Source: Candidatus Woesearchaeota archaeon
GTDB lineage: Archaea > Nanobdellota > Nanobdellia > Pacearchaeales > GW2011-AR1
Reading direction: 5' to 3'
Assembly (NCBI GenBank): GCA_964467035.1
Contig: CAYXNX010000001.1
Coordinates: forward strand, 51,373 to 115,372
DNA length: 64,000 bases
The position numbers were made by a program, and so were the translations under genes. A model generated the notes under the pieces. That model worked only from the letters and a program-made list of their open reading frames with translations. It was not told where the DNA came from and searched no databases. Of the stretch, positions 12,592-45,869 are shown in pieces (within the stretch, counting starts at the first letter, position 1; every line of letters starts with the position of its first letter).

Positions 12592-12592
12592 C

Positions 12593-14852: not shown

Positions 14853-14853
14853 T

Positions 14854-15886: not shown

Positions 15887-15947
15887 TAAAGATGTCAGAT
15901 AATTAGAGTATTTAAATCTTTTCTAAAAACCTGTATACACCTTTTGA

Positions 15948-16588: not shown

Positions 16589-19329
16589 TTTAACCCATTA
16601 CATTTTTGAACTATTTTTTCAAGCTGTTTTTTAGTGAAAGAATCCAGAGGTCTTGCATCTGCAAGAGGATGCTCAGCAAGATTTTTTAATTCAATATGCT
16701 TTGCTCTTACAAAAACTTGTTCTAATAATCTTAAAAATTTCAATTGCTGAGAATTATAATGTTCATTTTTATCCATAACAAATTTATCAAATTCCCATTT
16801 AATCATCTCTTGAGGATCTGGCAATCCCTTTATATCTAATAATTCTCTTAAAAAAGAAATAAAATCTTTAGTCTGTTGAATATTCTCAATAGTCAAAGAA
16901 GGATTTAATTCTCTAAGTTTCTTTTCTATTCGGATAATCTCTTTTGGTGTAACTCCCTCGCCATTTTTTATTTTTTGCATAAGAGGATCGCTGTTAATAA
17001 AATAACTAAAATCTTCATCTTCTTTAACCTGCATCATTTCTTTTTCAACTTTAACTACTATATCTGGAGCATCTATTTTTAACATTTTCTTTCTTTCTTT
17101 TTCATAAAAAATCATGAGAGGGGCAATATCTCTAACTAAAAAATCAACATCTTCAAAAGTAATCTCTTCCCAGAATTGTTCTTTTTGGATTCTAATCAGA
17201 TCATCTTTTTTCTGTCTTACAGCATCAAGATTCTTATCCCAAATCGCTTCTGCCCTTTCAACTACATACTCCTGAACTTTTGCTATTTTATCATTATTCT
17301 CTGTTTTGATATAATCAAACAATTTAACACATTGGGAAATAAAACTATACACTTTTGTGTTCTCAGAAGGAGAATAAATTAACAAAGGGGCTATCTCATC
17401 TTTCAATTCTTTTATATGTTCTTTTAAATCAAATTTAGATGAAATAACTTTTTTAATAATCCCTTTCTTTTCTACCACCATAGGAGATTCTATGTCTATT
17501 TTTTTAACAGTATCTTTTATTTGCTTTTCAAGTATTCTTTTCTCTTTTTCATTAAGATTTTTTTCTAGAGTATCAACTTGTTCTAAGAATATTCTTGTTT
17601 TTGCATCTAAAGTTGGGGTTTTATGATTTAAATCTTGTAATTTGTGAACAAGTATATTTGAGTAGTCTCCAAATTTAAAATCAAGAATTAAAAAATTGTC
17701 TTTTATGTGTTGACCTTCATTATTTGTCGGAAGCCATTCTTTGTTTTCACATGCTGAGAAATTTCTGGTTCCTCTACCCAACATCTGCCAAAATCGTATA
17801 GAAGACATAACAGGTTTCACGAAAACTAAATTCATTACTTCAGGAATATCCACTCCTGTATCTAAAACACCGACAGATAAAGCAATTCTTGGACTATCTC
17901 TTTTTCCAAATCTTTTAACTTCGTCCATATAGCGTGCCCTGTCTGAAGTAATTACTTTAATTTCTTTTGCTAATGTAGGATAAAGTTTCTGGAAAAGAGC
18001 TTCTATAGATTCAGCGTGTTTAATGCTCGCACAAAAGAAAATGCTTTTACAAGGTCTTTTATCATCTGATTTATAACACCTTTCCATAAACTCTCTAATT
18101 ATTAACTCATTTGTCCTTTTATCTGTAAATAATCTTTCAAATTTAGAACCTGGAGTTTGGAAGCGTTCAGGATCTTCTTCCTGGACTTTTAACTTTTGTT
18201 GCAATTCCTTACTTAATGTTTTACCCTCTATTCCTAAAGAAAGGATTTTTGTTTCAATAATCTCTGAAACATATGGTGCTAAAACGCCATCTCTCACTGC
18301 AGAAAGATAATCATACTTATATGTTGGTTTTTTATTTTCACAACCAAATAATTCATAAGTGTTCCTCGAATCTTCAAAAGAAGGCGTGGCAGTAAGACCA
18401 ATTTTTATAGCATCAAAATACTTAAAGATATCATTATTTTTATCATAATAAGATCTATGTGCTTCATCAAAGATTATTAAGTCAAATGCTCCAGGACCAA
18501 ATTTCTCATAAAATTTTCCTCTTGGTTTTTGAGGAGACATCAGTGTTTGAACTGTAGAAACATAAAATCTTGCACTATCTGAGAAACCCTCTATGTTTAA
18601 CTCACAAACTGGAGTTTCAGGAAAGAATTTTTTAAAGCCTTTTTCTTTTGCTTGATTAGATAAAGAAATTCTATCAACTACAAATAAAACTTTTTGAACA
18701 TTTTCTGTTTTTACTAAACAATCAATTAAAGCCATAGCAACCCTTGTTTTTCCTGTTCCAGTAGCCATATTAATAAGAGCCCTTTTATGGCCTTGAAAAA
18801 TATGCTCTAAAATTACCTTAACAGCTTCAACCGCCCTTTTCCTGTCAAGGATATCTGATCTAATCTTAGAATTAACAGGATTTTTTCTTTTTTTCATCAA
18901 ACTAACAATTCTATGCAAATCTTTTTGTGAAAAAGGTAATGTGATTTTTCTTCTCCTGTCTAAATCATCTACATAATACCAACTTGTTCCATTTGTGAGA
19001 AAAATAGGGATTTTTATTTTGATTTGCTTTTCAATATCATTTCTATAAGTTCTTGCTTGGATTTCTCCTTTTTCAACGCTAACAGATGTTTTTTTTGCTT
19101 CAATAATTGCCAAAGGTGTTCTATCCTCATCTAATAATAAATAATCTATAAATCTATCAATTCCTTTTTCTATCCCTAATCCAATACCAAAATATTCCTT
19201 AGTTTGAAAATTAGATTTAACAGGATTTATTTCTTCTTTTACATAATGTCCTTTAACTTTCCATCCTGCTCTTTCTAAAATAGGATCAATTAATTTTTTT
19301 CTTGTTTCTTTCTCAGATATTTTATCCAT
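16579..19329 (-). CDS. hsdR: type I restriction enzyme R subunit
   Basis: N-terminal nuclease domain, helicase motifs NMATGTGKT and DEAH, 916 aa. Confidence 0.9.
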   Translation of the reverse strand: MDKISEKETRKKLIDPILERAGWKVKGHYVKEEINPVKSNFQTKEYFGIGLGIEKGIDRFIDYLLLDEDRTPLAIIEAKKTSVSVEKGEIQARTYRNDIEKQIKIKIPIFLTNGTSWYYVDDLDRRRKITLPFSQKDLHRIVSLMKKRKNPVNSKIRSDILDRKRAVEAVKVILEHIFQGHKRALINMATGTGKTRVAMALIDCLVKTENVQKVLFVVDRISLSNQAKEKGFKKFFPETPVCELNIEGFSDSARFYVSTVQTLMSPQKPRGKFYEKFGPGAFDLIIFDEAHRSYYDKNNDIFKYFDAIKIGLTATPSFEDSRNTYELFGCENKKPTYKYDYLSAVRDGVLAPYVSEIIETKILSLGIEGKTLSKELQQKLKVQEEDPERFQTPGSKFERLFTDKRTNELIIREFMERCYKSDDKRPCKSIFFCASIKHAESIEALFQKLYPTLAKEIKVITSDRARYMDEVKRFGKRDSPRIALSVGVLDTGVDIPEVMNLVFVKPVMSSIRFWQMLGRGTRNFSACENKEWLPTNNEGQHIKDNFLILDFKFGDYSNILVHKLQDLNHKTPTLDAKTRIFLEQVDTLEKNLNEKEKRILEKQIKDTVKKIDIESPMVVEKKGIIKKVISSKFDLKEHIKELKDEIAPLLIYSPSENTKVYSFISQCVKLFDYIKTENNDKIAKVQEYVVERAEAIWDKNLDAVRQKKDDLIRIQKEQFWEEITFEDVDFLVRDIAPLMIFYEKERKKMLKIDAPDIVVKVEKEMMQVKEDEDFSYFINSDPLMQKIKNGEGVTPKEIIRIEKKLRELNPSLTIENIQQTKDFISFLRELLDIKGLPDPQEMIKWEFDKFVMDKNEHYNSQQLKFLRLLEQVFVRAKHIELKNLAEHPLADARPLDSFTKKQLEKIVQKCNGLKWK

Positions 19330-20321: not shown

Positions 20322-20443
20322 GAGCCCATAGCTCAGTCAGGTTAGAGCGCTGGTCTTATATGGCTACAATTCATTAGGATTGTTGTTCTCTAAGGATGAC
20401 CTAAGAGAGCCAGAGGTCCCCGGTTCGAATCCGGGTGGGCTCA
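20322..20443 (+). tRNA. tRNA-Ile (anticodon UAU) with 47-nt intron at canonical 37/38 position (intron 20361..20407)
   Basis: exons fold as acceptor GAGCCCA/UGGGCUC, D stem GCUC/GAGC, anticodon stem CUGGU/GCCAG, loop CUUAUAA, T arm CCCGG-UUCGAAU-CCGGG; intron ends pair with the exon anticodon-loop region. Confidence 0.7.
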
Positions 20444-20583
20444 GAATTAAGGGGAACTTCGCGAATCAAAGATTCGCGGCGTGAGGTCCCCGGTTCGAAT
20501 CCGGGTGGGCTCAGAATTAAGGGGAACTTCGCGAATCAAAGATTCGCGGCGTGAGGTCCCCGGTTCGAATCCGGGTGGGCTCA
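20414..20583 (+). repeat. 3 tandem copies (period 70 nt) of tRNA-Ile 3' portion (variable loop+T arm+acceptor 3' strand) separated by identical 40-nt hairpin spacer
   Basis: aggtccccggttcgaatccgggtgggctca x3; spacer contains cgcgaatc-aaa-gattcgcg hairpin. Confidence 0.8.
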
Positions 20584-20590
20584 GAAAAAA

Positions 20591-21647: not shown

Positions 21648-21720
21648 GCCCCTGTGGTGTAGCGGTCAAGCATAGAGCCCTTTCGAGGCTCTGACCCGGG
21701 TTCGAGTCCCGGCGGGGGCA
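21648..21720 (+). tRNA. tRNA-Glu (anticodon UUC)
   Basis: acceptor GCCCCUG/CGGGGGC, anticodon stem GAGCC/GGCUC loop CUUUCGA, T arm CCGGG-UUCGAGU-CCCGG. Confidence 0.85.
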
Positions 21721-22143
21721 TTTAAAGATAAGGATTGAACAAAGTGAAATCCTTCTTTCTCCGAGAACTTCTGAGAACTCTGCTTGACAATTTCAATGAA
21801 AGGGAAGTTAAATGTTAAGAAACCATAGGGGTCATACAAGTTCGAGTCCGAGCAATTTTGCGAGTGGAGGAAAACAAGGGGTGAATCAAGGCGAGCAGGG
21901 TTGCGAGAAGGCGGGGGCATTTAAAGATAAGGATTGAACAAAGTGAAATCCTTCTTTCTCCGAGAACTTCTGAGAACTCTGCTTGACAATTTCAATGAAA
22001 GGGAAGTTAAATGTTAAGAAACCATAGGGGTCATACAAGTTCGAGTCCGAGCAATTTTGCGAGTGGAGGAAAACAAGGGGTGAATCAAGGCGAGCAGGGT
22101 TGCGAGAAGGCGGGGGCATTTAAAGATAAGGATTGAACAAAGT
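21721..22143 (+). repeat. 2.1 tandem copies of a 199-bp unit immediately after tRNA-Glu; each unit ends with the tRNA 3'-terminal 10 nt ggcgggggca
   Basis: 21721..21919 and 21920..22118 identical; third partial copy to 22143; contains degenerate T-loop-like gttcgagtcc. Confidence 0.8.
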
Positions 22144-30379: not shown

Positions 30380-30673
30380 ATGCGACTTTACAGAAAAGGA
30401 AAACCAGTAGATTTTGGAAGTAGTTGGTTTTCAACAATTTCAGAAGCAACAGAATTTGAAAAACCAAACGAAGAAAACATTATTTCAATAATGTGGCTAA
30501 AAAAACAACTTTTTAATAAATATTTTGAACACAATGGAATGGGATACAGGGCAAAATCTCCCAAGAATTATGCTCTTGCAAATCCTGTTATAGAATCAAT
30601 GACTATGGATAAATTTGAAGAAAGATTGCATCACCCAATAATCTCAAAATTTTATTGGGATGGAGAATATTAA
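30380..30673 (+). CDS. hypothetical protein
   Basis: 97-aa ORF. Confidence 0.3.
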   Translation: MRLYRKGKPVDFGSSWFSTISEATEFEKPNEENIISIMWLKKQLFNKYFEHNGMGYRAKSPKNYALANPVIESMTMDKFEERLHHPIISKFYWDGEY

Positions 30674-31359
30674 CCAGAAATCACTGACCCTCTAAAATTT
30701 TGACCTAAAAGCAACTTATCTAAATTATTCAAATTGTTTCCAACAATATAAGTTTTAATTTTTTCTTCTAAAATAATTTTAGCCGCATTTTGGTCTAAAA
30801 CAAAATGCTGTCCTGGGGAAAATTTAATAGAATTTGCCATTTTAAAAAAATCTTTCCAAGAAATTTCTTTTATAAATTTCGCACTTTTATACTTTTTTGG
30901 ATTTTTATCAAACAGCCCATCAACATTTGTAACATTAATAAATTCGCTTCCAAATTTTTTTGCAATCAAAGAAGCAGTTGAATCACTTGTTTGATTTGGC
31001 TTATACCCTAATGCACCGCAAAAAACAAAATTCTGTTTTTTCAAATATTTTTTAATTTCTTTCATTTTATGTGGAATTCCTTTTTCAGGGTCTAATTTAA
31101 AAAAATAACTCATAAATCTCGCATTAGTCCTTGTAACTGAAATACCTGCAAAACTCTGCAATTTATTACTTGCTTTAATCTCCCTTAATCCTTGAATATA
31201 CATTCTCGCCACCGAACCTCCCCCGCAAACCACCACAAACTTATAATTTTTAGAATGTTGTTTCAAAATTTTTTTAAACTTTTTAAGAAAACTTAAATTA
31301 ATTTTATTATCTTTAATAATCTGACTTCCCCCCAAACTTAAAACAATCACCTTTTTCAT
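30670..31359 (-). CDS. pyrH: uridylate (UMP) kinase, amino-acid kinase fold
   Basis: MKKVIVLSLGGS..VVVCGGGSVAR; 229 aa. Confidence 0.6.
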   Translation of the reverse strand: MKKVIVLSLGGSQIIKDNKINLSFLKKFKKILKQHSKNYKFVVVCGGGSVARMYIQGLREIKASNKLQSFAGISVTRTNARFMSYFFKLDPEKGIPHKMKEIKKYLKKQNFVFCGALGYKPNQTSDSTASLIAKKFGSEFINVTNVDGLFDKNPKKYKSAKFIKEISWKDFFKMANSIKFSPGQHFVLDQNAAKIILEEKIKTYIVGNNLNNLDKLLLGQNFRGSVISG

Positions 31360-31664
31360 AAATAAAAAAAGAAATTTATATATTTAAATTTACCTAACAG
31401 TAAACAACTTATCATCATCTACATCAAATACTCCCAATCTTACCCCTGCATCAATCCACCCATGAGCATAATTCAAAGCACCAAAACAATTAACATAATC
31501 TCCTTTTTCAAAAAAATGCCTTGCATCACTTAAATAATTCCCCGCCATCTCAATAATTTCCTTCGCCTCTTCTTTTTTAACAATATTTTCCTTCACAATT
31601 TCAAAAGCCCTTTCAGTAGTTTTAAAATATTTTTCAATCTTTTCTTTTGTTATTTTGGATTTCA
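31250..31664. repeat. 415-bp direct repeat copy 1 (pyrH 5' end plus intergenic plus 91-aa gene)
   Basis: near-identical to 32629..33043. Confidence 0.85.
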
Positions 31665-31665
31665 T
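31390..31665 (-). CDS. conserved small archaeal protein (91 aa), co-operonic with HEPN/MNT
   Basis: ATGA overlap with upstream HEPN gene; duplicate copy at 32768..33043. Confidence 0.45.
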   Translation of the reverse strand: MKSKITKEKIEKYFKTTERAFEIVKENIVKKEEAKEIIEMAGNYLSDARHFFEKGDYVNCFGALNYAHGWIDAGVRLGVFDVDDDKLFTVR

Positions 31666-32054
31666 AATTTCAGTTTTACAAATTTTTTCAATTTATTAAT
31701 TAACTCTTTCATCAAAAATTCATTCCTATCTAAATAATCTTTATCAATAAAAAATCCTTCATAAGATACCCTATTTCTTAAAACTCTAAGGTCATTAAAA
31801 AAATGATTATAACTCCTAAATTCCGAATATTTATCAACTAAATAGTCAAATAATTCTTTATGACTTAAAGTTTTGTAACCGTCAATCAACAAAACAGAGG
31901 TAGCTAATTCTTTTATAATTTCATAATAATCTGAAATAATTAAAGCAGACATTTTTTCCTTATTTTGAAGTTTAATTCTATCCTCAATTAAATTTATCAT
32001 TTTCAAAATACTTTTTGCTCTTTCTTTATCCGGAGTTATTTTTATCAAACTCAT
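31662..32054 (-). CDS. HEPN-domain protein (partner of MNT), R-N-x-x-x-Y variant motif
   Basis: RVLRNRVSYEG. Confidence 0.5.
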   Translation of the reverse strand: MSLIKITPDKERAKSILKMINLIEDRIKLQNKEKMSALIISDYYEIIKELATSVLLIDGYKTLSHKELFDYLVDKYSEFRSYNHFFNDLRVLRNRVSYEGFFIDKDYLDRNEFLMKELINKLKKFVKLKL

Positions 32055-32596
32055 TTTAATCTTACAAAACCTTTTAAAATAAATCCATTCAAAATATTGT
32101 TTTTCAATTCTTTATTTAATCTATTAATATCTGATTCAAATAAGATATTTAATTTTTTATTTAAAATATCCTCAAATTTTTTTATATTTAATTTCTTTGA
32201 TTTTGATTCTACAAAAATATCAACATCACTTTCATTTATGTCTTCACCTTTTGAATAACTTCCAAAAACAATAATAGAATTAGGCACACAGAAGTCATAT
32301 AAATAATCAACTAATTTAGATTCATACAAATTATGAATATTAAGAACTTTTTTCGCAAATAAAAATTCATTACTTTCTCTATTTGCAATATATCCAAAAA
32401 ATCTATCACCTTTCTTTTTTGATAAAATTTTTTGATTTTCTAAATTAATAAGATGTTTTTTAACAGAAGTCGGAGCTAAATTAATTTTTCGCGAAATTTC
32501 TTTAATAAAATGGATATTCAAAGGATCTTGAGAAAAAACACTAAATACTTTCCAAACACTTTGTTCAAATAAACATATTTGTTCCATAATAAACAT
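32051..32596 (-). CDS. minimal nucleotidyltransferase (MNT) with N-terminal wHTH
   Basis: IIVFGSYSKGEDINESDVDIFVE. Confidence 0.7.
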   Translation of the reverse strand: MFIMEQICLFEQSVWKVFSVFSQDPLNIHFIKEISRKINLAPTSVKKHLINLENQKILSKKKGDRFFGYIANRESNEFLFAKKVLNIHNLYESKLVDYLYDFCVPNSIIVFGSYSKGEDINESDVDIFVESKSKKLNIKKFEDILNKKLNILFESDINRLNKELKNNILNGFILKGFVRLK

Positions 32597-32628
32597 TTAT
32601 ATTGCTTAAAGTATATAAATGTTTCTAC

Positions 32629-32738
32629 TAGAATGTTGTTTCAAAATTTTTTTAAACTTTTTAAGAAAACTTAAATTAATTTTATTATCTTTAATAATCT
32701 GACTTCCCCCCAAACTTAAAACAATCACCTTTTTCATA
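32629..32738 (-). pseudogene. duplicated 5' fragment of pyrH (first ~36 codons)
   Basis: inside 415-bp repeat copy 2. Confidence 0.6.
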
Positions 32739-32767
32739 AATAAAAAAAGAAATTTATATATTTAAAT

Positions 32768-33043
32768 TTACCTAACAGTAAACAACTTATCATCATCTAC
32801 ATCAAATACTCCCAATCTTACCCCTGCATCAATCCACCCATGAGCATAATTCAAAGCACCAAAACAATTAACATAATCTCCTTTTTCAAAAAAATGCCTT
32901 GCATCACTTAAATAATTCCCCGCCATCTCAATAATTTCCTTCGCCTCTTCTTTTTTAACAATATTTTCCTTCACAATTTCAAAAGCCCTTTCAGTAGTTT
33001 TAAAATATTTTTCAATCTTTTCTTTTGTTATTTTGGATTTCAA
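32768..33043 (-). CDS. second copy of the 91-aa small protein (ATG replaced by TTG)
   Basis: identical protein; start codon position reads TTG. Confidence 0.4.
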   Translation of the reverse strand: MKSKITKEKIEKYFKTTERAFEIVKENIVKKEEAKEIIEMAGNYLSDARHFFEKGDYVNCFGALNYAHGWIDAGVRLGVFDVDDDKLFTVR

Positions 33044-33291
33044 TGTTTTGTATAACCTCCTTTTTTCTCATATTCTTTATGTAATTGATGGACCTCTAAA
33101 ATAATCTGTAAAATCCTTAATTCATCTCCAGCAACATTTGTATAAAAAGCTCTTGCCTCTTTAGTTAACTTAATTAAAAATAAATTACTTACACCATATT
33201 TTTGTTGAAAATATTTATAAATTGGAAGTCTCTTAGAAATTGGTTCACCTACCCTACCACTTTTCAAAAAATCAATAGTTTTAGTAATCAA
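33040..33291 (-). CDS. hypothetical small protein
   Basis: 83-aa ORF. Confidence 0.3.
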   Translation of the reverse strand: MITKTIDFLKSGRVGEPISKRLPIYKYFQQKYGVSNLFLIKLTKEARAFYTNVAGDELRILQIILEVHQLHKEYEKKGGYTKH

Positions 33292-33392
33292 AAAATAAAG
33301 ATCTTGATTAGTTTTATTTCCCTTGCTTAATTCAGATTCAATATTTAACTTAACCCTAAATAACTCCTTACTTAATTAAGTAATTTTGTCCT

Positions 33393-33659
33393 TCATACTT
33401 TAATAGCCTCAGAAATCAGCTTATTTAATTTTTTATTGTTTGGAAAAATCCAGATAATTTTATCCTCTTCAAACATAATCTTATTTGATTTTTCAAGATA
33501 ATTTAATATCAACTTAAATGTTTGATACTGCATTTGTTTAGGCAATGCCTTCCATAATTGCATCCGAGTAGGATAATCTCCAAAATCTTGTATTAACTTT
33601 TCAACTACTAAAATTGAATCCAACTTAGGATAATGTAGAATATTTATTTTGTTTTTCAT
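33393..33659 (-). CDS. hypothetical small protein
   Basis: 88-aa ORF. Confidence 0.3.
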   Translation of the reverse strand: MKNKINILHYPKLDSILVVEKLIQDFGDYPTRMQLWKALPKQMQYQTFKLILNYLEKSNKIMFEEDKIIWIFPNNKKLNKLISEAIKV

Positions 33660-33699: not shown

Positions 33700-33819
33700 A
33701 CAAAATCTCAATAATTTCCTTCGCCCCTTCTTCTTTAACAATATTTTTCTTCACAATTCTCAAGATCTTTTCAGTAAGATTATAATATTTCTCTAATTTT
33801 TTGTTATTTTATCTTTCAT
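33700..33819 (-). pseudogene. degenerate third copy of the 91-aa gene 5' end (in-frame stop after 8 codons)
   Basis: similar to 31550..31665; ATGA overlap with HEPN gene. Confidence 0.35.
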
Positions 33820-34268
33820 ATTTGTTTATTAATAATCTTAATTAGTTTAGTATAAATTTGTTTTGTAAATTTAATAACTTTTTTAGCATATTCTACATCA
33901 ATTTTAGTTCCGTAATACAACATTCCATTTCTAAAAAATCTAATCTGATTCAAAAAACCAATTTCCTTATCTGTAAATTCTAAATTTTTTAAATAAGAAA
34001 CTTCGGCTTCATGAGCTTTAAAACCAGAAGCATTAAATCCATGAATAAACATTTCAGCCCTAATCAATTCCATTAAAATATCATAACATTTTTTAACATA
34101 ATCGTTAGCATTTAGCTCATTAATTCCTATTTTTTCAATTAATATAATCAAATAATTATAATTTTGTTGAGATTCATCTATTAAAAATTTTGCTCTTGAT
34201 TTATCTGAAAATTGTTTTTTAACAATTCCCAATTTAAGAAATTCCTCAAATTTTTTAACAGGTTTCAT
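33816..34268 (-). CDS. HEPN-domain protein
   Basis: FFRNGMLYYG. Confidence 0.5.
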   Translation of the reverse strand: MKPVKKFEEFLKLGIVKKQFSDKSRAKFLIDESQQNYNYLIILIEKIGINELNANDYVKKCYDILMELIRAEMFIHGFNASGFKAHEAEVSYLKNLEFTDKEIGFLNQIRFFRNGMLYYGTKIDVEYAKKVIKFTKQIYTKLIKIINKQI

Positions 34269-34813
34269 AATTCAATTCCTCCAACAAGAACAATACCATT
34301 AAGTATATTTTCCTTTAAATTTTTATTCATTTCTTTAAATGAATCATAAAAATTAAGATTAATTTCTTTACTCAAAATTTTTTCAAAATTAGACAAATCT
34401 ATCTTTTTTTTCTTTCTTCCAATAATTGCTATATCAATATCAGAATTAAATATATCATCTCCTCTTGAGTAACTTCCAAAAAGAATAATTGTTCCACCTG
34501 CAAATTCTTTTTCCAAAAAATCAACAACATTTAAAAGATATAACTGTTCTAGATTATTGGCTCTTTTTAATTGTAAAATTTTATGATTATCTCTATTTAA
34601 TTCAATGCTCCAACGTTTAGATTCTTTATCTTGGTTAATAGTTATAAACTCCTTTTTTTCTAATAAAGGAAGAGCTTTCATAACTGCTGGAGCACTTACT
34701 TTTAAAAACTTAGAAAGAGATCTTTGATTAAAGCTTTGACCTGCCCGTACAAATAAAAAATCCAAAATATCTCTTTGCAAATTAGTTAATTTATGTCTAT
34801 TAATATTTACCAT
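34265..34813 (-). CDS. MNT nucleotidyltransferase with wHTH
   Basis: IILFGSYSRGDDIFNSDIDIAII. Confidence 0.7.
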   Translation of the reverse strand: MVNINRHKLTNLQRDILDFLFVRAGQSFNQRSLSKFLKVSAPAVMKALPLLEKKEFITINQDKESKRWSIELNRDNHKILQLKRANNLEQLYLLNVVDFLEKEFAGGTIILFGSYSRGDDIFNSDIDIAIIGRKKKKIDLSNFEKILSKEINLNFYDSFKEMNKNLKENILNGIVLVGGIEL

Positions 34814-35015
34814 AGTTAATATATATTAACCAAAGTTTATAAGTTTTTCTAATTTAACGGCTTTGTTGAAAAAGTTAAGATAATTTTTGATTTTACTAAA
34901 AGTTTAGGAAACTCCTGTAGAATATAGGGTGGGTTTTTCGACGAAGTCGAAACTTGTAGTGGGAAAATGTAAAATCAAAAACAAATAAAAATTTAGATTT
35001 TCAACAAAGCCTAAT

Positions 35016-35261
35016 TTAACCGTAAACTTTCTTTCTAGTATCTATATCAAAAACAATCCACACTTCCTCTTTCAACTCTAATAAAACTCTATACCCTCCA
35101 ATTCTTAATCTAAAAGAACTTTTATAACCTTGTAATTTTTTTATATCAATTCTTTTACCATCTAATAAATCCTTTAATTTTACATTAATTAAATTTCTTA
35201 TATTAAAAGGTAATTTAAAATATTTCTTTTTTGCTTTTGAAGAGAACTCAATCTTTTTCAT
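35016..35261 (-). CDS. RelE/ParE-family toxin
   Basis: FRLRIGGYRVLLELKEEVWIVFDIDTRKKVYG. Confidence 0.6.
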   Translation of the reverse strand: MKKIEFSSKAKKKYFKLPFNIRNLINVKLKDLLDGKRIDIKKLQGYKSSFRLRIGGYRVLLELKEEVWIVFDIDTRKKVYG

Positions 35262-35481: not shown

Positions 35482-35901
35482 TTTGTATTTATAAATTTTT
35501 CTAAACTCAAAACTCTTTTTCTTAATTTCATAACTAACTTGAAGGAGAAAAATTTATGTGGCAGTTTTTCTATATCAACAAGCAGTAGAAAAAGCATTAA
35601 AGGTTTATTCTTATTTTGACACAAGGAAGTAGTTCCTCAACCTTATTCTTTAATTTATCTTGCCACCAATACTTCAATCCCTGAAAAATATTTTTCTTTT
35701 TTAAGAAAATTAACTCTTTCATCAAAAATTCATCCTACCCAAATAATCTTTATCAACAAAAAATCCTTTACAAGATATTCTATTTCTCAAACATTTAACT
35801 TTCTTCAGTATTTAAAACTCAAAACAGAAAGTTTTGATTTGCTGAATTTTTTATCAAGAAAATTTAGAATATTAAATAAAAATTTGAAAAAAACTTTATA
35901 A

Positions 35902-37391: not shown

Positions 37392-39599
37392 TTAACGTAC
37401 TTCCCATTTATTAAATCCAGCACTATCACTTAAATAAATTTTTCCCCCTTTATACACAAAAATTTGTTGCTCACCGAATCCTGTTCGGAACCAAAAATTA
37501 ACACCTCCTTTTAATTCCAAAGTGCAATTTCCATAAATACTTGTTTCAGGACCTTCAATTGAATAATTCTGAATCCCTTTATACCCTGTTTCAGGCACAC
37601 ACTTCCCATCTTCACACCCATAATTGCAAAAAATCTTTTTTGTATCTACATTTGCCCCATTACAATAAGCTTCTTCAACATACCAATCATCATTTCCAAA
37701 AGGATTATAAACACACTCATCCCAAACTGCTTCATTTGAATCCATTGCAACACTATAAATATATGAATCAAAATCATAATCCTTTACTTCATAATCAACA
37801 TTTAACAAATCACCACTTGTATTCATAAAATCATAATCAAAACACCCAATCTCTCCCAAACTTGTATCTTGAAAATCACTCCCATTAAAAGAATAAAAAC
37901 TTAAACCATCTGCTAAAAGAACCTTATCATGATAAGGACTATAATACCCGTGAGTAGGAGAAAAACTTGCTGTATAATTATCCTTAAACTTGTCTTCACT
38001 ATTAGTAGTTTCATTATTATGAACTATTTGCAACTTATTATCCTCCCACCAATGCAAATCTCCATACTCATTCCCAAAAGGACTTAAATAAGCTGTATCT
38101 ACTTTTTCAATAAATCCCGGATTATTTGTATCTTCAATATCATAAAATCTCCATAAATTACTAGTTGGATTAAAAACCAAAACCTTATCCCCTTTTTCAG
38201 ACCAAACATTAATCCTCCCCCCACCAACACTATCAAAACTATAAGCATTACTCACTTTTGCTGAAGGATTTGGGTCATCCCCATAATAAAAACTACAAGT
38301 CCTATTACACTCCCAATTATCCATCTCAGGGTCACAAGGACCTTCACCATGTTCTACAATTAATTTAATAGGGTAATAACTATCCTCTCCCATTTCTCCA
38401 GCAAACTCTAAATACCCTTCTTCTCCACCACTTCCCAAAAATTCATAACTTGACTTTAACCCGATTGCAAAAAAATCATCTTTCAAATTTGCCTTCAAAT
38501 CTTCTTCTGCATTACTTCCCAAAAAATACCTATCAACACTTGTCTCATTTGCTGACTCATTATAAAAAGAAGTAGAATTTTCAACATAAAAACCCAACCC
38601 ATTTGCCCCCTGCCCAATATCATTAAATAAATCTTCATTTCCTGTTTCATTATCTGGATAATTTGATTCATTTGTTATTTGAGTATCATTAAATCTTGAA
38701 ATAGAAACATTTATAGCACGAGTTCCACTTTGTCTTATTAACGGAACTGTAAGCTCAACACCTCTTATTTCCACAATATCATCAATAACTGAAGTATCAA
38801 ACTCTATAAAACCCCTATAAACAGAATTGTAAGAATTTTGCCCAGATTCTGTATTACCAATAGTTTTCAGATTTGTGCTACCTAAAAAAGAAGCACGAAG
38901 ATCTACTCTTTCAAAATCATAAACATCTCCATTTTGTTTAACAGTCCCTTTAAAAGGTCCATCAAAACAATTTACTACACAAGGAAGCCCATCAACTGGG
39001 TCAACCTCAATAGGATACTCAGCATTTTCCAACCATTCTTTATCAATCTCAACATTTAAATCAAGAAGTTTATTCCTTTCATCAAAATAAATTACATAAT
39101 TTCCATAAGAAACATCCCCATTATAATCAGTAGCAAAAGGCCTTGCAAGAGAATGAACAAACTGCTTATTAAAATCTCTTAAAACCAATTCCTCATTTTC
39201 AATACTTACTTTAACTCCTTTATGGATTTCATAAATTCCAAAATCAAAAACATTTTTTTCAGGAATATCATCAACCGGAATTATTGTTTTTTCAAGTTTT
39301 GGATTTGATAATTTTTCTAATTCAACAAATTGCTCTCCATCATAAAAAAATATATCTTCTGGAAAAATCTCAGTTCTATAACCTCCCCCACTTTTTCTAA
39401 ATGTTTTAGAGCTATATGTTCTCTTGGAAATAATTTCTTTTCCTTCTACTTCTTCAACACTTGAATTAACCTGCTCTTCAACAACATTTCCACTAATCTT
39501 ATTTTCTGTTTGAAAAAAATTCCCATCCCCCACCGCCCACGCCAAACCCCCAATTACCAAAACAACTATTCCAAAACTCATCCAAAATTTACTATTCAT
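37392..39599 (-). CDS. large secreted protein (735 aa) whose N-terminus is the intact copy of the R element
   Basis: MNSKFWMSFGIVVLVIGGLAWAVG signal. Confidence 0.5.
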   Translation of the reverse strand: MNSKFWMSFGIVVLVIGGLAWAVGDGNFFQTENKISGNVVEEQVNSSVEEVEGKEIISKRTYSSKTFRKSGGGYRTEIFPEDIFFYDGEQFVELEKLSNPKLEKTIIPVDDIPEKNVFDFGIYEIHKGVKVSIENEELVLRDFNKQFVHSLARPFATDYNGDVSYGNYVIYFDERNKLLDLNVEIDKEWLENAEYPIEVDPVDGLPCVVNCFDGPFKGTVKQNGDVYDFERVDLRASFLGSTNLKTIGNTESGQNSYNSVYRGFIEFDTSVIDDIVEIRGVELTVPLIRQSGTRAINVSISRFNDTQITNESNYPDNETGNEDLFNDIGQGANGLGFYVENSTSFYNESANETSVDRYFLGSNAEEDLKANLKDDFFAIGLKSSYEFLGSGGEEGYLEFAGEMGEDSYYPIKLIVEHGEGPCDPEMDNWECNRTCSFYYGDDPNPSAKVSNAYSFDSVGGGRINVWSEKGDKVLVFNPTSNLWRFYDIEDTNNPGFIEKVDTAYLSPFGNEYGDLHWWEDNKLQIVHNNETTNSEDKFKDNYTASFSPTHGYYSPYHDKVLLADGLSFYSFNGSDFQDTSLGEIGCFDYDFMNTSGDLLNVDYEVKDYDFDSYIYSVAMDSNEAVWDECVYNPFGNDDWYVEEAYCNGANVDTKKIFCNYGCEDGKCVPETGYKGIQNYSIEGPETSIYGNCTLELKGGVNFWFRTGFGEQQIFVYKGGKIYLSDSAGFNKWEVR

Positions 39600-40065
39600 T
39601 TAACATTACCTCAATTTCATCAACAATCTTCTTAGATTTATCTAACAAATTATTTAAAATTTCCTTATTAACTTCAGTTTTAATACCGTATTGAAATTCC
39701 TCTCTCAAAGTTTTTGCATCTTTTTCTATCATTTGACCAGTAGTTCTAATAAATGAAACAACTGATTTATCTAATTTTATCTCTCCAATTTCAATAAAAT
39801 GTTCAATTGCATTAATACTACACTCATAATTTTTGGATTCAAACCCTTTACTAAACAATATAATTAAAAAAGAATGATAAACTGCATAATACAATTGAGC
39901 AACTACCCAATCTTCAAATCCTCCCTCAATATTATAATTAGCCGCCTTAATATTATGTTTCGCTTTTTTAATATGTGCACTAGATAATTCTAAGTTTGGA
40001 ACTATCCTCTTCATTCTCTTCTCACTTTTCAAACACCAATTAAATTTTGATTCAATATCTTGCAT
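39592..40065 (-). CDS. HEPN-domain protein (PF05168-like)
   Basis: AQLYYAVYHSFLIILFSKG..SKNYECSINAIEHF. Confidence 0.45.
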   Translation of the reverse strand: MQDIESKFNWCLKSEKRMKRIVPNLELSSAHIKKAKHNIKAANYNIEGGFEDWVVAQLYYAVYHSFLIILFSKGFESKNYECSINAIEHFIEIGEIKLDKSVVSFIRTTGQMIEKDAKTLREEFQYGIKTEVNKEILNNLLDKSKKIVDEIEVMLNE

Positions 40066-40630
40066 TTTTTATCACCTCTAAAAATACTGATTCCCCTTTT
40101 ATCACAATTCCTTTTCTAATAATATCCAAAATAACTTCATTTTTAATTTTTACCTTATTGATTAAATCTTGTTCTTTCAAAATTAAAGGGACAATAGGCT
40201 TACTCCTAGATCTAGAAATACTTAAACAAAAATCATTAACTTGTTTAATTTTATTTGTCATAAATAAAACATCAACATCATTAAAACTTTTTTTATCTAA
40301 AATAGAACCAAACAAAATAATCAAATTTGCATTTTCAAATTCTTTAAGTTCTTCAAAATAAATTTTGGCAAATCCTTTTAAATTATTTCTTTCTTCAATA
40401 AGTAAAAATTCACAAATTTTAATTGTTTGATCTTCTTCAAAATTCAACCAATATTTTTTAACATTCCCAATATTTTCCGATAAAACAAATTTTTTCATTT
40501 CAAGATTTTTAAGAATTTTAAACGCACTTCCAACACTAATATTAAGTTTTCTAGAAATCTGATTAATACTATTATTTTCAAAATTTTTTAATAAATACAA
40601 GATTATTTTTTTGGTATTTCTTGAAATCAT
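40052..40630 (-). CDS. MNT nucleotidyltransferase with wHTH
   Basis: ILFGSILDKKSFNDVDVLFM. Confidence 0.6.
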   Translation of the reverse strand: MISRNTKKIILYLLKNFENNSINQISRKLNISVGSAFKILKNLEMKKFVLSENIGNVKKYWLNFEEDQTIKICEFLLIEERNNLKGFAKIYFEELKEFENANLIILFGSILDKKSFNDVDVLFMTNKIKQVNDFCLSISRSRSKPIVPLILKEQDLINKVKIKNEVILDIIRKGIVIKGESVFLEVIKNARY

Positions 40631-40676
40631 TTTCCTTTAAAGTGAATAATCATTCACAAATAATGAATGTTTATAA

Positions 40677-40849
40677 ATCTTTCCAAATCCCACGCACTCA
40701 CCCCCACCTCCCACACCAAACCCCAAATTACCAAAACCACAATTCCTAAACTCGTCCAAATTTACTATTCATTTCACCCCTCCAACCACCCACGCCCTCG
40801 CCGCTCCCAAAACAACTATTCCAATTAAAAATAAATTTTTACTTCGCAT
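40677..40849. repeat. two tandem degenerate R elements (orphan start + signal-peptide-coding fragments)
   Basis: reverse complement reads MNSKFGRV* and MRSKNLFLIGIVVLGAARAWVVGG. Confidence 0.6.
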
Positions 40850-41459
40850 TTTCAAAATCCTCTTTTTTTATTTTAATCCATCTTGAACAAACTTTTAGCA
40901 AATGATTAGATAAAGAAAAAGGACTACCTCTTTTTCTATCAAAATAAGTATAAAGAATAATTTCAGTACCTCTTTTATTTAAATCTTCTAAAATTGGACA
41001 AAAATCAGTATCAGAAGAAATCAAAACAATTTTTTTAATAAGAGGATAATCTTCTTTAATATGACTTAAATCTAAAGCCAACAAAATATCAACCCCTTTT
41101 TGTTTATACTCAAATCCATCATTTACTTTTAATCTTTGGACTCTTCCCTCTCTAAAAATAATTCCCTCTTTAATTAAAGAACTTCGAAAGGAATCATACT
41201 TAACTTTTCTTCTAATTTGTTCTCTAGTAGGATTATTTGACTGGAATGGCGGAGCAGTATATAAAAAAATTTTTTCAAAATCAAAATTTTCCCCCAAACA
41301 GATATTTTCTACAAAATTTTTAATTTTAAAAGGAATATAATACCCTTCACCCAAATGAATGTTTAATTTTGATAAAAACCCCAAATCTATAAAAAATAAA
41401 ACTTTATTATTCATTTTTAAAAAAGCCTCCAAAATTTTTTTCAGAAAAATAAAAAACAT
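40839..41459 (-). CDS. NYN/LabA-like (PIN-fold) nuclease domain protein
   Basis: IVLISSDTDFCPILEDLNKRGTEIILY. Confidence 0.45.
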   Translation of the reverse strand: MFFIFLKKILEAFLKMNNKVLFFIDLGFLSKLNIHLGEGYYIPFKIKNFVENICLGENFDFEKIFLYTAPPFQSNNPTREQIRRKVKYDSFRSSLIKEGIIFREGRVQRLKVNDGFEYKQKGVDILLALDLSHIKEDYPLIKKIVLISSDTDFCPILEDLNKRGTEIILYTYFDRKRGSPFSLSNHLLKVCSRWIKIKKEDFENAK

Positions 41460-41551
41460 CTAGTGACCTAAAAAGATCACTAGGGAACATTTCACTAACA
41501 AAAGAATGATCCAATTTATAAACTTTTCTATTAGTTTGGATTGTTGCACGA

Positions 41552-41806
41552 TTAGGTAACAATTTTAAATATTCTATATCTAGCATTATAGTCTTTTAAC
41601 AATTTTACTAGGTTTTTAGGTTTATTTTTCATTAAGATAACTCCTTTTGCTAATTTCTCAAAAGTGTTTTGTTTGAGAACACCTTCTCTAAAATAGGAAT
41701 AAGTCCCAAAATTAGAATAATCCTTATATCCATAGAGTTTTCTATTAAATTCAAGTCTTTTCTTTGGAGCTATAGAATCAAACCCATAAATTAACACGTA
41801 TTTCAT
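41552..41806 (-). CDS. hypothetical small protein (faint Cas2/VapD-like pattern)
   Basis: 84-aa ORF MKYVLIYGFDSIAPKKRLEFNRKLYGY. Confidence 0.25.
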   Translation of the reverse strand: MKYVLIYGFDSIAPKKRLEFNRKLYGYKDYSNFGTYSYFREGVLKQNTFEKLAKGVILMKNKPKNLVKLLKDYNARYRIFKIVT

Positions 41807-41859
41807 ACTGGTAACTATGAACAGTAATATTTAAATATTACTGTATACTAATACAGTAT

Positions 41860-42732
41860 ATGAATACAGTAAAAAGAGATTGGAAAACTTATAATGAAAA
41901 ACTAATAAAAAGAGGAGAGTTCTACTTAAATCCAAAATTCCTTGATACATGGTTAGATGAAATAAAGAAGATGAATGCTGGTAAGATAGGAGAACCTTAT
42001 CTTTATCCTGATTCTATGATAAAATTTCTAGCTGTTTTGCATGCAAAAAATTTTGATTATAGAGCTCTTGAAGGTATTATGAGGGTTTTTTCAGGAATGA
42101 ATTTTAATTTTCCAGTAATAAGTTATACTCAAATTTGTCGTCGAGTTAATAATCTTGACCTTTCATTTGATATTAAGGAAAAAGATTTAGTTGTTGCAAT
42201 TGATGGTTCTGGAGAAAAAGTCAGTAATAGAGGAGAATGGATAAGACAAAAGTGGAAGGTGAGAAGAGGTTGGATAAAAGTAGTGATAATGGGAACCCCT
42301 GAAGGAAAGATAGTTGATATAAGAGTTGGAAATGAAAAGCTTGATGAAAGAAAAGCTGCTAGAGGTATGTTAAGAGATAATAATTCTAAAATCAGTAAGG
42401 CAATTATGGATGGCCTGCATGATTGCAGAGATACATTTAATGTTTGTGAAAAAAGAAAAATAGAGCCAGTGATAAAAATTAGAAAGAATGCGAGAACAAG
42501 ATCAAAAGGATCTCCAAAAAGAAGAGAAGCTGTTGTTGAATATCAAAGATTAGGACATAATGATTGGGTTAGAAAAAAAGGATATGGAATGAGGTGGCCT
42601 GCTTCAGAGGGTATTTTTTCTGCTGATAAAAGAATATTTGGGGAGAGTGTTAGAGCAACTAAAAAAAGAAACATGTATCAGGAAGTCAAACTAAAATTTT
42701 GGGTATACAATAAACTTCAGAAAATAGGGTAA
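41860..42732 (+). CDS. putative DDE-type transposase (IS5/ISH-like)
   Basis: VVAIDGSGEKV candidate first Asp; 290 aa, basic; only plus-strand gene in minus-strand array. Confidence 0.35.
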   Translation: MNTVKRDWKTYNEKLIKRGEFYLNPKFLDTWLDEIKKMNAGKIGEPYLYPDSMIKFLAVLHAKNFDYRALEGIMRVFSGMNFNFPVISYTQICRRVNNLDLSFDIKEKDLVVAIDGSGEKVSNRGEWIRQKWKVRRGWIKVVIMGTPEGKIVDIRVGNEKLDERKAARGMLRDNNSKISKAIMDGLHDCRDTFNVCEKRKIEPVIKIRKNARTRSKGSPKRREAVVEYQRLGHNDWVRKKGYGMRWPASEGIFSADKRIFGESVRATKKRNMYQEVKLKFWVYNKLQKIG

Positions 42733-42808
42733 AAAAAGGTTAGATAGCGAGAGCCTTGTTTAAATTAAGAATCATGCAACAGAGCATATTAGTTAAAATC
42801 AAAGTCTT

Positions 42809-42901
42809 ATTCATTAAAAAATACCTCCTTGAACCATCCCTCCCAAACCCCAAATTACCAAAACCACAGTTCCAATTAAAAATAAATTTTACTATTTCCC
42901 A
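42809..42901. repeat. R element (orphan)
   Basis: reverse complement ATGGGAAATAGTAAAATTTATTTTTAATTGG.. overlaps RelE stop. Confidence 0.55.
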
Positions 42902-43155
42902 TAAACTTTACCTCTTTTATCCATTTTAAAAATAATAATTTTTTTATCTTTATAACTTATTCTATATAAAACCCTATAATCTCCAATTCTAATCCTAAAA
43001 CAATTATGCTTTCCAATTATGGATTTAGAATCAGAAGGAACAGAAGTTTTATTAAAAACTTGATTTAACTTACCCAAAATTCTTTTAGAAATATTTTTAT
43101 CTTGTTTTTCCAAAAATTTTATAGGTTGAGAATCATAAACTAAAGAAAAATTCAT
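42892..43155 (-). CDS. RelE/ParE-family toxin
   Basis: FRIRIGDYRVLYRISYKDKKIIIFKMDKRGKVYGK. Confidence 0.6.
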   Translation of the reverse strand: MNFSLVYDSQPIKFLEKQDKNISKRILGKLNQVFNKTSVPSDSKSIIGKHNCFRIRIGDYRVLYRISYKDKKIIIFKMDKRGKVYGK

Positions 43156-43355
43156 AAGCTTAATTCTTTTTCAATATCTTCATTAGAAATCAACAAACCT
43201 TTTTTTTCGTTTTCATAACTTTCTTCAAGCAAATTTTCTTCTTCAGTTGTTAAAAAAGAATCATCCAAAGTTTCCTGAATATTTAAAACAAGATTTTTTA
43301 AATTATTCAAATCATTATGTATTGTTTCCAAGGTTATATTTTCCATATTAAACAA
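43152..43355 (-). CDS. cognate antitoxin
   Basis: C-terminal ENEKKGLLISNEDIEKELSL. Confidence 0.5.
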   Translation of the reverse strand: MFNMENITLETIHNDLNNLKNLVLNIQETLDDSFLTTEEENLLEESYENEKKGLLISNEDIEKELSL

Positions 43356-43357
43356 AA

Positions 43358-43543
43358 TTAATGAAGACTTAAAAAACTTTCCCTCCTTTCAGTTTTATAT
43401 CTTTTAGATTCTCGTGCAAATCCCCCAACCACCGCCCACACCAAACCCCTCATTACCCTTTCTAAATCTCCCACCTCCCACGCCAAACCCCCAATTACCA
43501 AAACTCCAGTTCCAATTAAAAATAAATTTTTACTATTCACCAT
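43358..43543 (-). pseudogene. orphan R element with 61-codon ORF (signal-peptide fragment, duplicated GLAWxVG motif)
   Basis: MVNSKNLFLIGTGVLVIGGLAWEVGDLERVMRGLVWAVVGGFAR. Confidence 0.45.
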
Positions 43544-44019
43544 CTTTTTTCAAACCCCTCTCTAAAATCCTGAATATTTTTATTAGTTAATTTTGAAACA
43601 AAATCCAAAATATAATCAAAAAAAGATTCTGCGCTTTTTATAGTTTCTCCCACTTCATCTTTAGAAATTTCAAAATCTACATAATACTGTTTATCAACCC
43701 TTTCATACTTTGCTTTCCTAATCTCAGAATTATCTAAATTAAACAAATCTTTCAATAAAATTATTGAAGCCATATGATTCTCAGACTTTATTCCAACTTT
43801 AAAAAACAAAGAAATTAAAATATTATACATAGAATAATAAGCAAGAACAACAGATTCTTCCAATTTATTTTCTCTAAAAAGAATTTTTGCAGAACTAAGA
43901 TTACTCTCAGATTTAAGAATATAAGAATCTTTCAAATTTTCACTAGGATCAACAAGTTCTAATTTTCCTTGTTTTTTTAATTTAGTCAAAAAATCCATTT
44001 TTAGCGTAAAATTCTTCAA
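43537..44019 (-). CDS. HEPN-domain protein (PF05168-like)
   Basis: VVLAYYSMYNILISLFFKVGIKSENHMASIILL. Confidence 0.45.
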   Translation of the reverse strand: MKNFTLKMDFLTKLKKQGKLELVDPSENLKDSYILKSESNLSSAKILFRENKLEESVVLAYYSMYNILISLFFKVGIKSENHMASIILLKDLFNLDNSEIRKAKYERVDKQYYVDFEISKDEVGETIKSAESFFDYILDFVSKLTNKNIQDFREGFEKRW

Positions 44020-44540
44020 ATCCTTTTAAGATAACATGATTCTTTTCAATTTCTTTTATCAAAATATGCTTTGAGTCATATTTACCCATTTTCAAACTCA
44101 ATCTTGAATCAATTTTCAATAAATCTTCTTTTAATTCTTTACTTGAATTTTCAATATAAATATCAATGTCACTATTTTTTTTTGCAATTTCCTTAGAATA
44201 AGAACCAAATAAAATAGCTAATTTAATCCGTTTATCTAATTGAATTCTTTCAATTAATCTTCTTAAAGAAGGATAATTTTTAATAACACGATTCAATTTG
44301 TAAACTTCAGACATTAATATATAATTTCTCGCTTCTATACTTTTTTTAAGAAAAAAAACTTTATTCCTCCCTTTTTCTTCAAAATCTACAACATTCTCTT
44401 TCATTAATTCATTCATTCTCCTTACCACAACCATATGGTTAGTTTTTAATAACTTAGCAATTTCCCTAATATGATTTTTTTCTTTGATTAATTGAATAAT
44501 TACTTCCAATTTAAAATCTTTATGTTCCATATGTAACACT
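43982..44540 (-). CDS. MNT nucleotidyltransferase with wHTH
   Basis: AILFGSYSKEIAKKNSDIDIYIE; track start is GTG, ATG 9 nt later. Confidence 0.6.
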
Positions 44541-44555
44541 TATGTTCCATTATTT

Positions 44556-44655
44556 ATAAATCTTTCCAAATCCCACGCACCCACCCCCACCGCCCACGCC
44601 AAACCCCCAATTACAAAACAACTATTCCAATTAAAAATAAATTTTTATTATTCAT
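44556..44655. repeat. R element (orphan; stop after 14 codons)
   Basis: begins tttataaatctttccaaatcccacgcac as at 40668; reverse complement MNNKNLFLIGIVVL*. Confidence 0.6.
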
Positions 44656-45065
44656 TTTAATTTATCTTCAATCAATTTAGACAATTTTTTAATTACCAAT
44701 ACAATTTCTTTTTCATAATTTTGAAGAAAAGTTTCATTCACTTTTTTCCCATAATATACAATTCCATTTCTTGATTTTCTTAAAGTATCTATAAGTAATA
44801 ATTGATTGTCATTTAATAAATCATAATTTGTAGAGAAGTATTCTAACAATTTTTTATGACTTAGAGTCTTAAATCCATCTATGTACATAATACTTGTCAA
44901 AAAACCTAGAACAATTTCATAATATTCTTCAACAATTTTATATGGTTTATCTCTAGGCAAAATTTTAATTATATCCAATCTCTCTTTAGAAATTTCGAAC
45001 AATTCTCTAGACCTAATTAAATCTTTCTCTATTTTAAAAATTTCTTCATCCATAAATACCTCCAT
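44652..45065 (-). CDS. HEPN-domain protein
   Basis: RKSRNGIVYYGKKV. Confidence 0.5.
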   Translation of the reverse strand: MEVFMDEEIFKIEKDLIRSRELFEISKERLDIIKILPRDKPYKIVEEYYEIVLGFLTSIMYIDGFKTLSHKKLLEYFSTNYDLLNDNQLLLIDTLRKSRNGIVYYGKKVNETFLQNYEKEIVLVIKKLSKLIEDKLK

Positions 45066-45573: not shown

Positions 45574-45689
45574 AAATATACTAATTAGTATATAAAACTA
45601 TCGGTCAAACTCTGCTTTAACTAATTTAAAAAAATCATCATCTGCAAAAATCAAAGTATCATTAATTAAAAAATACCTCCTTAAAAAAA

Positions 45690-45860
45690 TCCCCCACACC
45701 AAAACCCCCATTACCCTTTCCAAATTCCCAACCACCCCCACACCAAATCCCTCATTACCCTTTCCAAATTCCCAACCACCCCCACACCAAATCCCTCATT
45801 ACCCTTTCCAAATCCCCACCGCCCACGCCAAACCCCCCATTACCAAAACCAAAATCCTAA
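45690..45860. repeat. tandem array (3 units, about 48 nt period) of the G/W-rich core of the R element
   Basis: cccaaccacccccacaccaaatccctcattaccctttccaaat repeated. Confidence 0.65.
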
Positions 45861-45869
45861 AATAATTAT

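Follow-up and report, generated by a model that had tools for sequence, protein, structure and literature searches.

In a Campbell-type pop-in, a circle that recombines once with the chromosome comes to lie between two identical direct repeats of the homology segment, with one unnatural junction where the circle was closed, and the structure can pop out again via recombination between the repeats. In islands that accrete at tRNA or gene ends, a partial copy of the target gene stands behind every one of a row of unrelated inserts, and the complete gene closes the row on one side; those arrays are the work of site-specific integrases with a fixed attachment (att) core, and their elements are of kilobase scale. 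Integron cassette arrays, which occur in Archaea as well as in bacteria (PMC9668308), line up small promoter-proximal cassettes, many of them toxin–antitoxin (TA)-like, in one orientation beside a fixed point. We analysed a stretch of 64,000 nucleotides, referred to below as the window, from a Candidatus Woesearchaeota archaeon (assembly GCA_964467035.1, contig CAYXNX010000001.1, positions 51,373 to 115,372 of the forward strand), in which a 414-bp direct repeat, made of a gene for a DUF357 protein and the start of the uridine monophosphate (UMP) kinase gene pyrH, brackets a pair of genes for a minimal nucleotidyltransferase (MNT) and a HEPN-like protein. The locus shares these arrangements with each of the systems above, and also departs from each. 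It differs from a pop-in in that there is no known circle, vector or donor, that a chromosomal gene start serves as the homology segment, and that insertion at one nucleotide has apparently happened more than once, with different cassettes. Unlike the islands, it comes with no integrase that we could find, with cassettes of 0.7–1.4 kb and with duplicated pieces of ~50 to 414 nt; unlike integrons, it is without IntI among the open reading frames (ORFs) scanned and without attC-type palindromes, and what recurs in it is the neighbouring gene's 5′ end. We put at slightly better than even the chance that the 414-bp repeat was left by a very recent insertion that depended on homology and took place by a single crossover of a circle.

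The DNA is that of a DPANN archaeon, with a GC content of 29.7%, one intron-containing tRNA and best pyrH matches to Pacearchaeota metagenome-assembled genomes (MAGs). Comparing the window with itself, we found that positions 31251–31664 (copy 1) match 32629–33042 (copy 2) over 414 bp with 0 mismatches (100% identity, offset 1378), and that similarity is random from the very next base on both flanks. All genes of the repeat region lie on the minus strand. Read in gene direction, the repeat opens with the TG of the DUF357 start codon, takes in the rest of DUF357 and a 30-nt spacer, and closes with codon 36 of pyrH; the first base of that start codon is the first non-repeat base, an A in copy 1 and a T in copy 2. 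In copy 1, DUF357 (31390–31665, 91 aa, ATG start) overlaps the stop codon of the HEPN-like gene HEPN1 as ATGA and is followed by full-length pyrH (30670–31359, 229 aa; Pfam AA_kinase, 8e-29; orthologues 67–90% identical). The DUF357 product matches PF04010 at 4e-25, passing the curated cutoff (88 bits against 29.4), and PDB entries 2PMR and 2OO2 by profile; a literature search on DUF357 found nothing useful. In copy 2, an intact DUF357 gene of the same 91 aa (32768–33043) starts with TTG at 33043 and overlaps the stop codon of the toxin-like gene o83 as TTGA. Behind it lies an orphan 5′ fragment of pyrH (32737–32629), which forms a 43-aa ORF (32606–32737) of 36 codons identical to pyrH that then runs into the upstream region of the MNT gene MNT1. 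The two copies thus bracket a unit of 964 bp (31665–32628, minus strand), consisting of a 32-nt promoter/operator region, a winged helix-turn-helix (wHTH)-MNT gene and a HEPN-like gene up to its stop codon. The full gene-direction order is MNT2, HEPN2, a decayed DUF357 fragment, o88, o83, DUF357 copy 2, the orphan pyrH fragment, the 32-nt promoter region, MNT1, HEPN1, DUF357 copy 1 and pyrH, and no DUF357 or pyrH relics were found in the window besides the three known copies. An earlier note on this DNA had described near-identical repeats of 415 bp; the repeats are real, but their true size is 414 bp and they are fully identical, so the divergence that the note would have taken as a sign of ancient duplication is absent. 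The single MNT–HEPN pair that it placed between the copies, the orphan pyrH start and the change to TTG in the second copy are all there.

As an independent check we used the Logan k = 31 contigs from SRA run SRR11308339. The exact sequence of HEPN1 occurs in this assembly, where the longest contig of its cluster is 149 kb, and three Logan contigs match the window exactly: L091 (22114–31280), L089 (31635–32658) and L090 (33013–34608). Each of the edges at 31280, 31635, 32658 and 33013 lies 30 nt (k − 1) inside the repeat, and the bracketed unit is recovered as a single contig, L089, with 30 nt of repeat on either end. Writing P for the side with the rest of pyrH, R for the repeat, X for the unit between and Y for the o83 side, R is a node with two ways in and two ways out in the k = 31 graph, X neighbours R only, on both sides, and all four junctions (P→R, R→X, X→R and R→Y) are present in raw reads. 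A chimeric join, which the earlier note had named as a possible cause of the repeat, is ruled out because every one of these junctions is carried by independent contigs. An exact DNA scan of metagenome contigs with 34 nt of R gave 0 matches, and exact-product look-ups for DUF357, pyrH, ParE81 and AT77 returned nothing; for DUF357 and pyrH this is because k = 31 contigs break at the repeat, leaving neither gene complete. L090 ends at 34608 inside MNT2 (34578–34608), though no 31-mer there recurs in the window; strain variation could account for this, as could a k-mer that also occurs beyond the window.

The layout P-R-X-R-Y, with identical direct repeats, unrelated outer flanks and a single unnatural closure junction, is that of a Campbell-type product, as the earlier note had proposed, although its further claim of a newly arrived mobile TA cassette does not hold up in the same way (see below). 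The only unnatural junction is that between X and copy 2 of R (junction c, 32628/32629), where pyrH breaks off at codon 36; an independent contig contains this junction, which lies within a few nucleotides of where similarity to the MNT promoter of the related locus L004 begins. A simple tandem duplication is excluded: R-X or X-R never occurs twice, and the sequence past copy 2 (o83) and before copy 1 (the rest of pyrH) is unrelated to X. Under the single-crossover proposal, a circle of 1,378 bp would first form from X (promoter, MNT1 and HEPN1) together with DUF357, the spacer and the first 36 pyrH codons, closed by an illegitimate join of pyrH codon 36 to the MNT1 promoter at junction c. This circle would then recombine once, within the DUF357–pyrH segment, with a chromosome in which o88-o83 stood directly upstream of DUF357, and the product would read o88-o83 / DUF357-pyrH′ / MNT1-HEPN1 / DUF357-pyrH. 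The repeat would start at the DUF357 start codon because homology between circle and chromosome begins where two different cassettes end. Identity extends to both edges and includes the useless piece of pyrH, which argues for a recent event rather than gene conversion. From this arrangement we infer the circular intermediate, the order of events and the predominance of the integrated form in the population; the source of the circle would most likely be the same lineage rather than a distant donor.

The same edge is found a second time in the array upstream of the repeat. A DUF357 pseudo-fragment of the first ~41 codons (33705–33827, minus strand) shares its 5′ edge at the start-codon position with the repeat but stands behind a different cassette, MNT2-HEPN2; its ATG and the stop codon of HEPN2 overlap as ATGA. 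The fragment bears out the earlier note's third, degenerate copy after the next HEPN/MNT pair: over 124 nt its identity is ~80%, it has two deletions and an in-frame stop codon, and this divergence and the indels mark it as older. Were cassettes stacked repeatedly, each new one would land by the intact target gene, the truncated 5′ copy would stay behind the previous cassette and decay, and the MNT1-HEPN1 insertion would be the youngest step. Repeated pop-ins thus predict more decay farther from the intact gene, and the DUF357 pseudo-fragment, which lies farther from it than the identical copy does, fits.

A second array (39380–45880) shows a related pattern around a gene for a 735-aa secreted or surface protein (start 39599), whose first 50–80 nt recur as degenerate fragments behind cassette stop codons. 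Such fragments stand behind HEPN3 (44650–44580, 96% DNA identity), HEPN5 (43545–43429, 88%), a ParE-like relic (42914–42843, 76%), NYN (40850–40807 and again 40777–40701, 88%) and a 950-aa gene (45862–45806, 84%), and MNT4-HEPN4 adjoins the intact 735-aa gene. The cassettes are unrelated to one another or just 28–47% identical in protein, against 76–96% DNA identity for the gene fragments, and in the alignments similarity begins at the start codon of the 735-aa gene. The window holds five wHTH-MNT/HEPN pairs in total, and an IS-type DDE transposase (insertion sequence, IS; 41860–42732) lies inside the second array. Together with the older decayed footprint, this array suggests that the process recurs. 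The cassettes are separated by plus-strand C-rich clusters (45691–45844, 40664–40836, 43398–43517 and 44541–44639), which continue the surface-protein 5′ fragments; the first of them is a 44-nt tandem repeat of 3.6 copies with 91% matches.

We compared the locus with 88 related DUF357 loci (L001–L088). In these Pacearchaeota-like loci, pyrH is as a rule preceded directly by DUF357; in about half, 150–2500 nt with small ORFs lie between DUF357 and pyrH (in L002, an antitoxin/RelE pair). The closest pyrH relative (90%) is on a 1.8-kb contig, the next is L004 (79%), and when a genome collection was scanned with pyrH no more than two relatives came up, each at 67%. L004 is the nearest relative with context and shares RNase P p30, an OB-fold protein and HerA downstream. 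Upstream of its DUF357 gene is a 98-aa membrane gene, the homologue of which in the window is at 63105–63401. As DUF357 and the 98-aa gene are adjacent in L004 (9283–9689), ~31 kb of the window (31665–63100) is a variable island; it starts at the DUF357 start codon and includes TA modules, six genes for giant surface proteins and an IS.

Orthologues of MNT1 (73%) and HEPN1 (65%) are also present in L004, 8.5 kb off DUF357, between clusters of C-rich 43-nt repeats. HEPN1 homologues (P0122–P0240) are 60–72% identical across many DPANN genomes and always paired with an MNT gene, in varied, housekeeping neighbourhoods; the family may correspond to a DPANN MNT/HEPN cluster whose unusual conservation was pointed out by Makarova et al. 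2019 (PMC6393860). The MNT1-HEPN1 cassette does move, because the L004 pair is 8.5 kb from DUF357 and homologues elsewhere occur in varied contexts. Judged from its sequence relationships, MNT1-HEPN1 is a conserved pair that resides in the lineage and shifts its location; it is not obviously a foreign TA module, and since L004 keeps the orthologous pair at that distance, a move within the lineage is as likely as an import. The earlier note's view that the module arrived as a mobile TA cassette goes too far, the pair being of a DPANN family conserved at 60–72%. L002 is the only other locus with MNT-HEPN-DUF357; an ancestral MNT1-HEPN1-DUF357 order read from it (MNT-HEPN-DUF357-pyrH) was rejected, as its pair is of another lineage (MNT 53%, HEPN 38%) and true MNT1/HEPN1 orthologues are 62–73% identical. 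The L004 clusters consist of 3–5 tandem C-rich 43-nt units (40–190, 1232–1370, 2024–2235 and 3882–4046) and separate small cassettes, namely MNT-HEPN, NYN, a toxin–antitoxin-like pair and archease; their orientation to the cassettes is opposite to that of the clusters in the window.

Several observations weigh against a single crossover of a circle. The circle, an empty site and an unduplicated allele are not among the observed forms, and a second DUF357 or a pyrH fragment is absent from all 88 other DUF357 loci. The model demands that o83 and, separately, HEPN1 had already become attached to one and the same nucleotide of the DUF357 start, L004 differs from the window upstream of DUF357, and the k = 31 graph is as compatible with P-R-Y plus a circle (R-X) as with P-R-X-R-Y. 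Neighbouring giant surface-protein paralogues share an exact repeat of 308 bp (57394–57701 = 59568–59875), which suggests gene conversion or recent duplication, so homogenisation is possible and identity alone is no proof of recency. In the second array, fragment decay does not climb steadily with distance from the intact gene, and the G-rich part of the fragments is a tandem-repeat-prone element with 44-nt repeats; the pattern there may come in part from a repeat element rather than from gene fragments. Finally, unrelated cassettes repeatedly abut a start codon, for which the circle model gives no reason: HEPN1, HEPN2, o83 and the L002 HEPN gene end at that of DUF357, and HEPN3, HEPN5, HEPN4, NYN and ParE at that of the surface-protein gene, their stop codons usually being supplied by ATGA or TTGA. 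We can only speculate that transcription of leaderless genes starts at the shared edge. Copying of cassettes from transcripts was considered and rejected, since X holds its own TATA box/B recognition element (TATA/BRE) region upstream of the likely transcription start. A wider version of the proposal would be that in this Pacearchaeota lineage small cassettes (TA, MNT-HEPN and others) stack without an integrase exactly at the DUF357 and surface-protein start codons, with duplication of the target 5′ ends, as a homology-driven analogue of integrons in which the 414-bp repeat is the newest step; we offer this tentatively, as an unlikely generalisation.

The want of a circle or an empty site among the observed forms is no obstacle to a dispersed duplication in cis. 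In an ancestral order o88-o83 / MNT1-HEPN1 / DUF357-pyrH, illegitimate recombination or template switching during replication would have placed a 414-bp copy between o83 and the promoter of MNT1, with no circle and no cassette movement, which agrees with MNT1-HEPN1 being a resident, conserved pair of the lineage; the TTG start of copy 2 likewise shows that junction d is itself an illegitimate join. We nevertheless regard this origin as improbable: an inserted copy of R requires two new junctions, and the circle is preferred because it needs one illegitimate join. Nor does a duplication in cis explain the edge at the DUF357 start codon, which is also the edge of the pseudo-fragment and of the second-array fragments.

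The ambiguity of the graph, together with a 414-bp repeat that exceeds short-read length, would equally allow a chromosome P-R-Y beside a separate circle or a sub-population with R-X, the loop having been threaded into the contig during assembly. However, a circle of 1.4 kb without a replication gene cannot persist alone and must be excised from an integrated copy, and X has no other neighbour in the reads. The 149-kb source contig passes through the repeat, which suggests pairing or long-read support, and we give an assembly path of this kind the same low weight as the duplication in cis. That the duplication is old and the two DUF357 copies were kept identical by gene conversion is very doubtful. 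The exact 308-bp repeat in paralogous genes lends it a precedent in the window, but identity here holds to the last base at both edges and spans the spacer and the useless pyrH piece, conversion tracts require flanking homology and usually have diverged edges, and the older pseudo-fragment decayed, having escaped homogenisation. Least likely of all is a site-specific capture, integron-like or integrase-mediated, aimed at the DUF357 start: several unrelated cassettes do end exactly at the same gene's start codon, at two loci, integrons are known in Archaea (PMC9668308), and repeats at tRNA 3′ ends elsewhere in the window resemble integrase footprints, but the 30 window ORFs scanned (a subset) contain no recombinase or integrase other than the DDE transposase, 10 kb away, the cassette borders are without a conserved palindromic site (their 3′ ends share no attC-type imperfect palindrome and abut the start codon of the DUF357 copy), and the duplicated segments differ by locus and length (~50–80, 124 and 414 nt), as expected for homology and not for an att core.

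Single-crossover integration, our preferred origin of the repeat, is an event of a kind already known; what may be a new variant of it is that cassettes stack again and again at start codons without a recombinase. Because DPANN archaea, with their tiny genomes, do not grow on their own, gene gain, loss and shuffling must be read from footprints such as these. A perfect footprint confirmed in raw reads, beside older decayed ones, provides a dated succession of events for a single site. Stacking, were it general, would account for the growth of defence and TA islands beside housekeeping genes without dedicated recombinases. The conserved DPANN MNT/HEPN pair, thought to be housekeeping-like, is still movable as a unit.

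The bracketed pair was characterised further. MNT1 (32051–32596, minus strand, 181 aa) matches PF01909 (2.8e-8) and PF18765 (4.6e-7), and the NCBIfam MntA model at 1.5e-5, short of that model's cutoff; MNT1 and MNT2 are both winged-helix plus minimal-nucleotidyltransferase proteins. The region upstream of MNT1 (32597–32628, minus strand) contains a palindrome (AAACATTTATAT..ATATAAATGTTT) and a TATA-like box, can be aligned by eye to the upstream region of the L004 orthologue, and is probably the MNT1 promoter. HEPN1 (31662–32054, minus strand, 130 aa) gave no usable match in Pfam, NCBIfam or PDB-sequence searches, and a fold search was therefore needed. The AlphaFold2 model has a predicted local distance difference test (pLDDT) score of 94, and its top Foldseek matches in the PDB are HEPN proteins, namely 2HSB (template modelling (TM) score 0.68–0.69), 6M6W, 5YEP, 7AE6 and 3O10, among them MntA–HepT complexes and the sacsin HEPN domain; the Foldseek E-values are weak (0.04–1). 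The L004 orthologue matches PF05168 at E = 0.0067. HEPN1 is accordingly modelled with a HEPN fold, and the label is one of fold only.

HEPN1 carries an R-x2-R-N-x3-Y-x-G motif, in which R93-N94-x3-Y98-x-G100 is invariant in 34 members of the family and no His is present. The pair resembles the type VII MntA–HepT systems (PDB 6M6W, 7AE6 and 5YEP) in its MNT-then-HEPN order, its overlapping stop and start codons, the nucleotidyltransferase domain upstream and the HEPN fold downstream. It differs in that the MNT protein has an N-terminal winged helix, that the HEPN partner has R-N-x3-Y instead of the catalytic R-x4-6-H RNase motif of type VII HEPN proteins, and that the family is unusually conserved (60–72%) and found in housekeeping contexts, as in the DPANN cluster of PMC6393860.

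The neighbouring cassettes of the first array are all on the minus strand. The RelE/ParE-like toxin gene o83 (33040–33396) has its original ATG at 33396, where it overlaps the o88 stop codon, and an in-frame stop at codon 7; the remaining ORF is of 83 aa from a TTG at 33291. The L004 partner protein has a weak ParE_toxin match (E = 0.045). The adjacent o88 (33393–33659) encodes a small winged-helix-like protein with weak winged-helix Pfam matches and is a putative antitoxin partner of o83; it is 36% identical to L004:2617–2919, which likewise pairs with a toxin-like gene. The original start of o83 (33373–33396) reads MKDKIT and then a stop, and these six residues match the consensus DUF357 N-terminus, with the DNA differences synonymous; this may be coincidence or an 18-nt relic. 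HEPN2 (33816–34268, 150 aa) is 29–30% identical to HEPN1 and shares the invariant R-x2-R-N-x3-Y-x-G, and MNT2 (34265–34813, 182 aa; PF01909, 5.6e-9; MarR-type HTH) is 35% identical to MNT1. At the far end of this array, what is left of a HEPN1-like gene's 3′ end (35686–35791) aligns locally to 31680–31782 at ~85% identity, which hints at an earlier copy of the MNT1-HEPN1 cassette. Between ParE81 and MNT2 lies a 160-nt element (34855–35016) with nested terminal inverted repeats, GGCTTTGTTGAAAA on both ends, and an RNA fold z of −7.1. It may resemble a miniature inverted-repeat transposable element (MITE); an Rfam search of 30–36 kb gave no match, to this element or elsewhere in that range.

Elsewhere in the window, a type I restriction–modification system (HsdM, HsdS and a probable HsdR; 9971–19329) encloses a Shedu-like gene. 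Two tandem repeats are anchored on tRNA genes. At 20413–20586 the 3′ 31 nt of the intron-containing tRNA are present three times with a 39-nt spacer, as a perfect tandem repeat, and at 21711–22143 a 199-nt unit that begins with the last bases of tRNA-Glu is present in 2.2 perfect tandem copies; both look like integration footprints without cargo.

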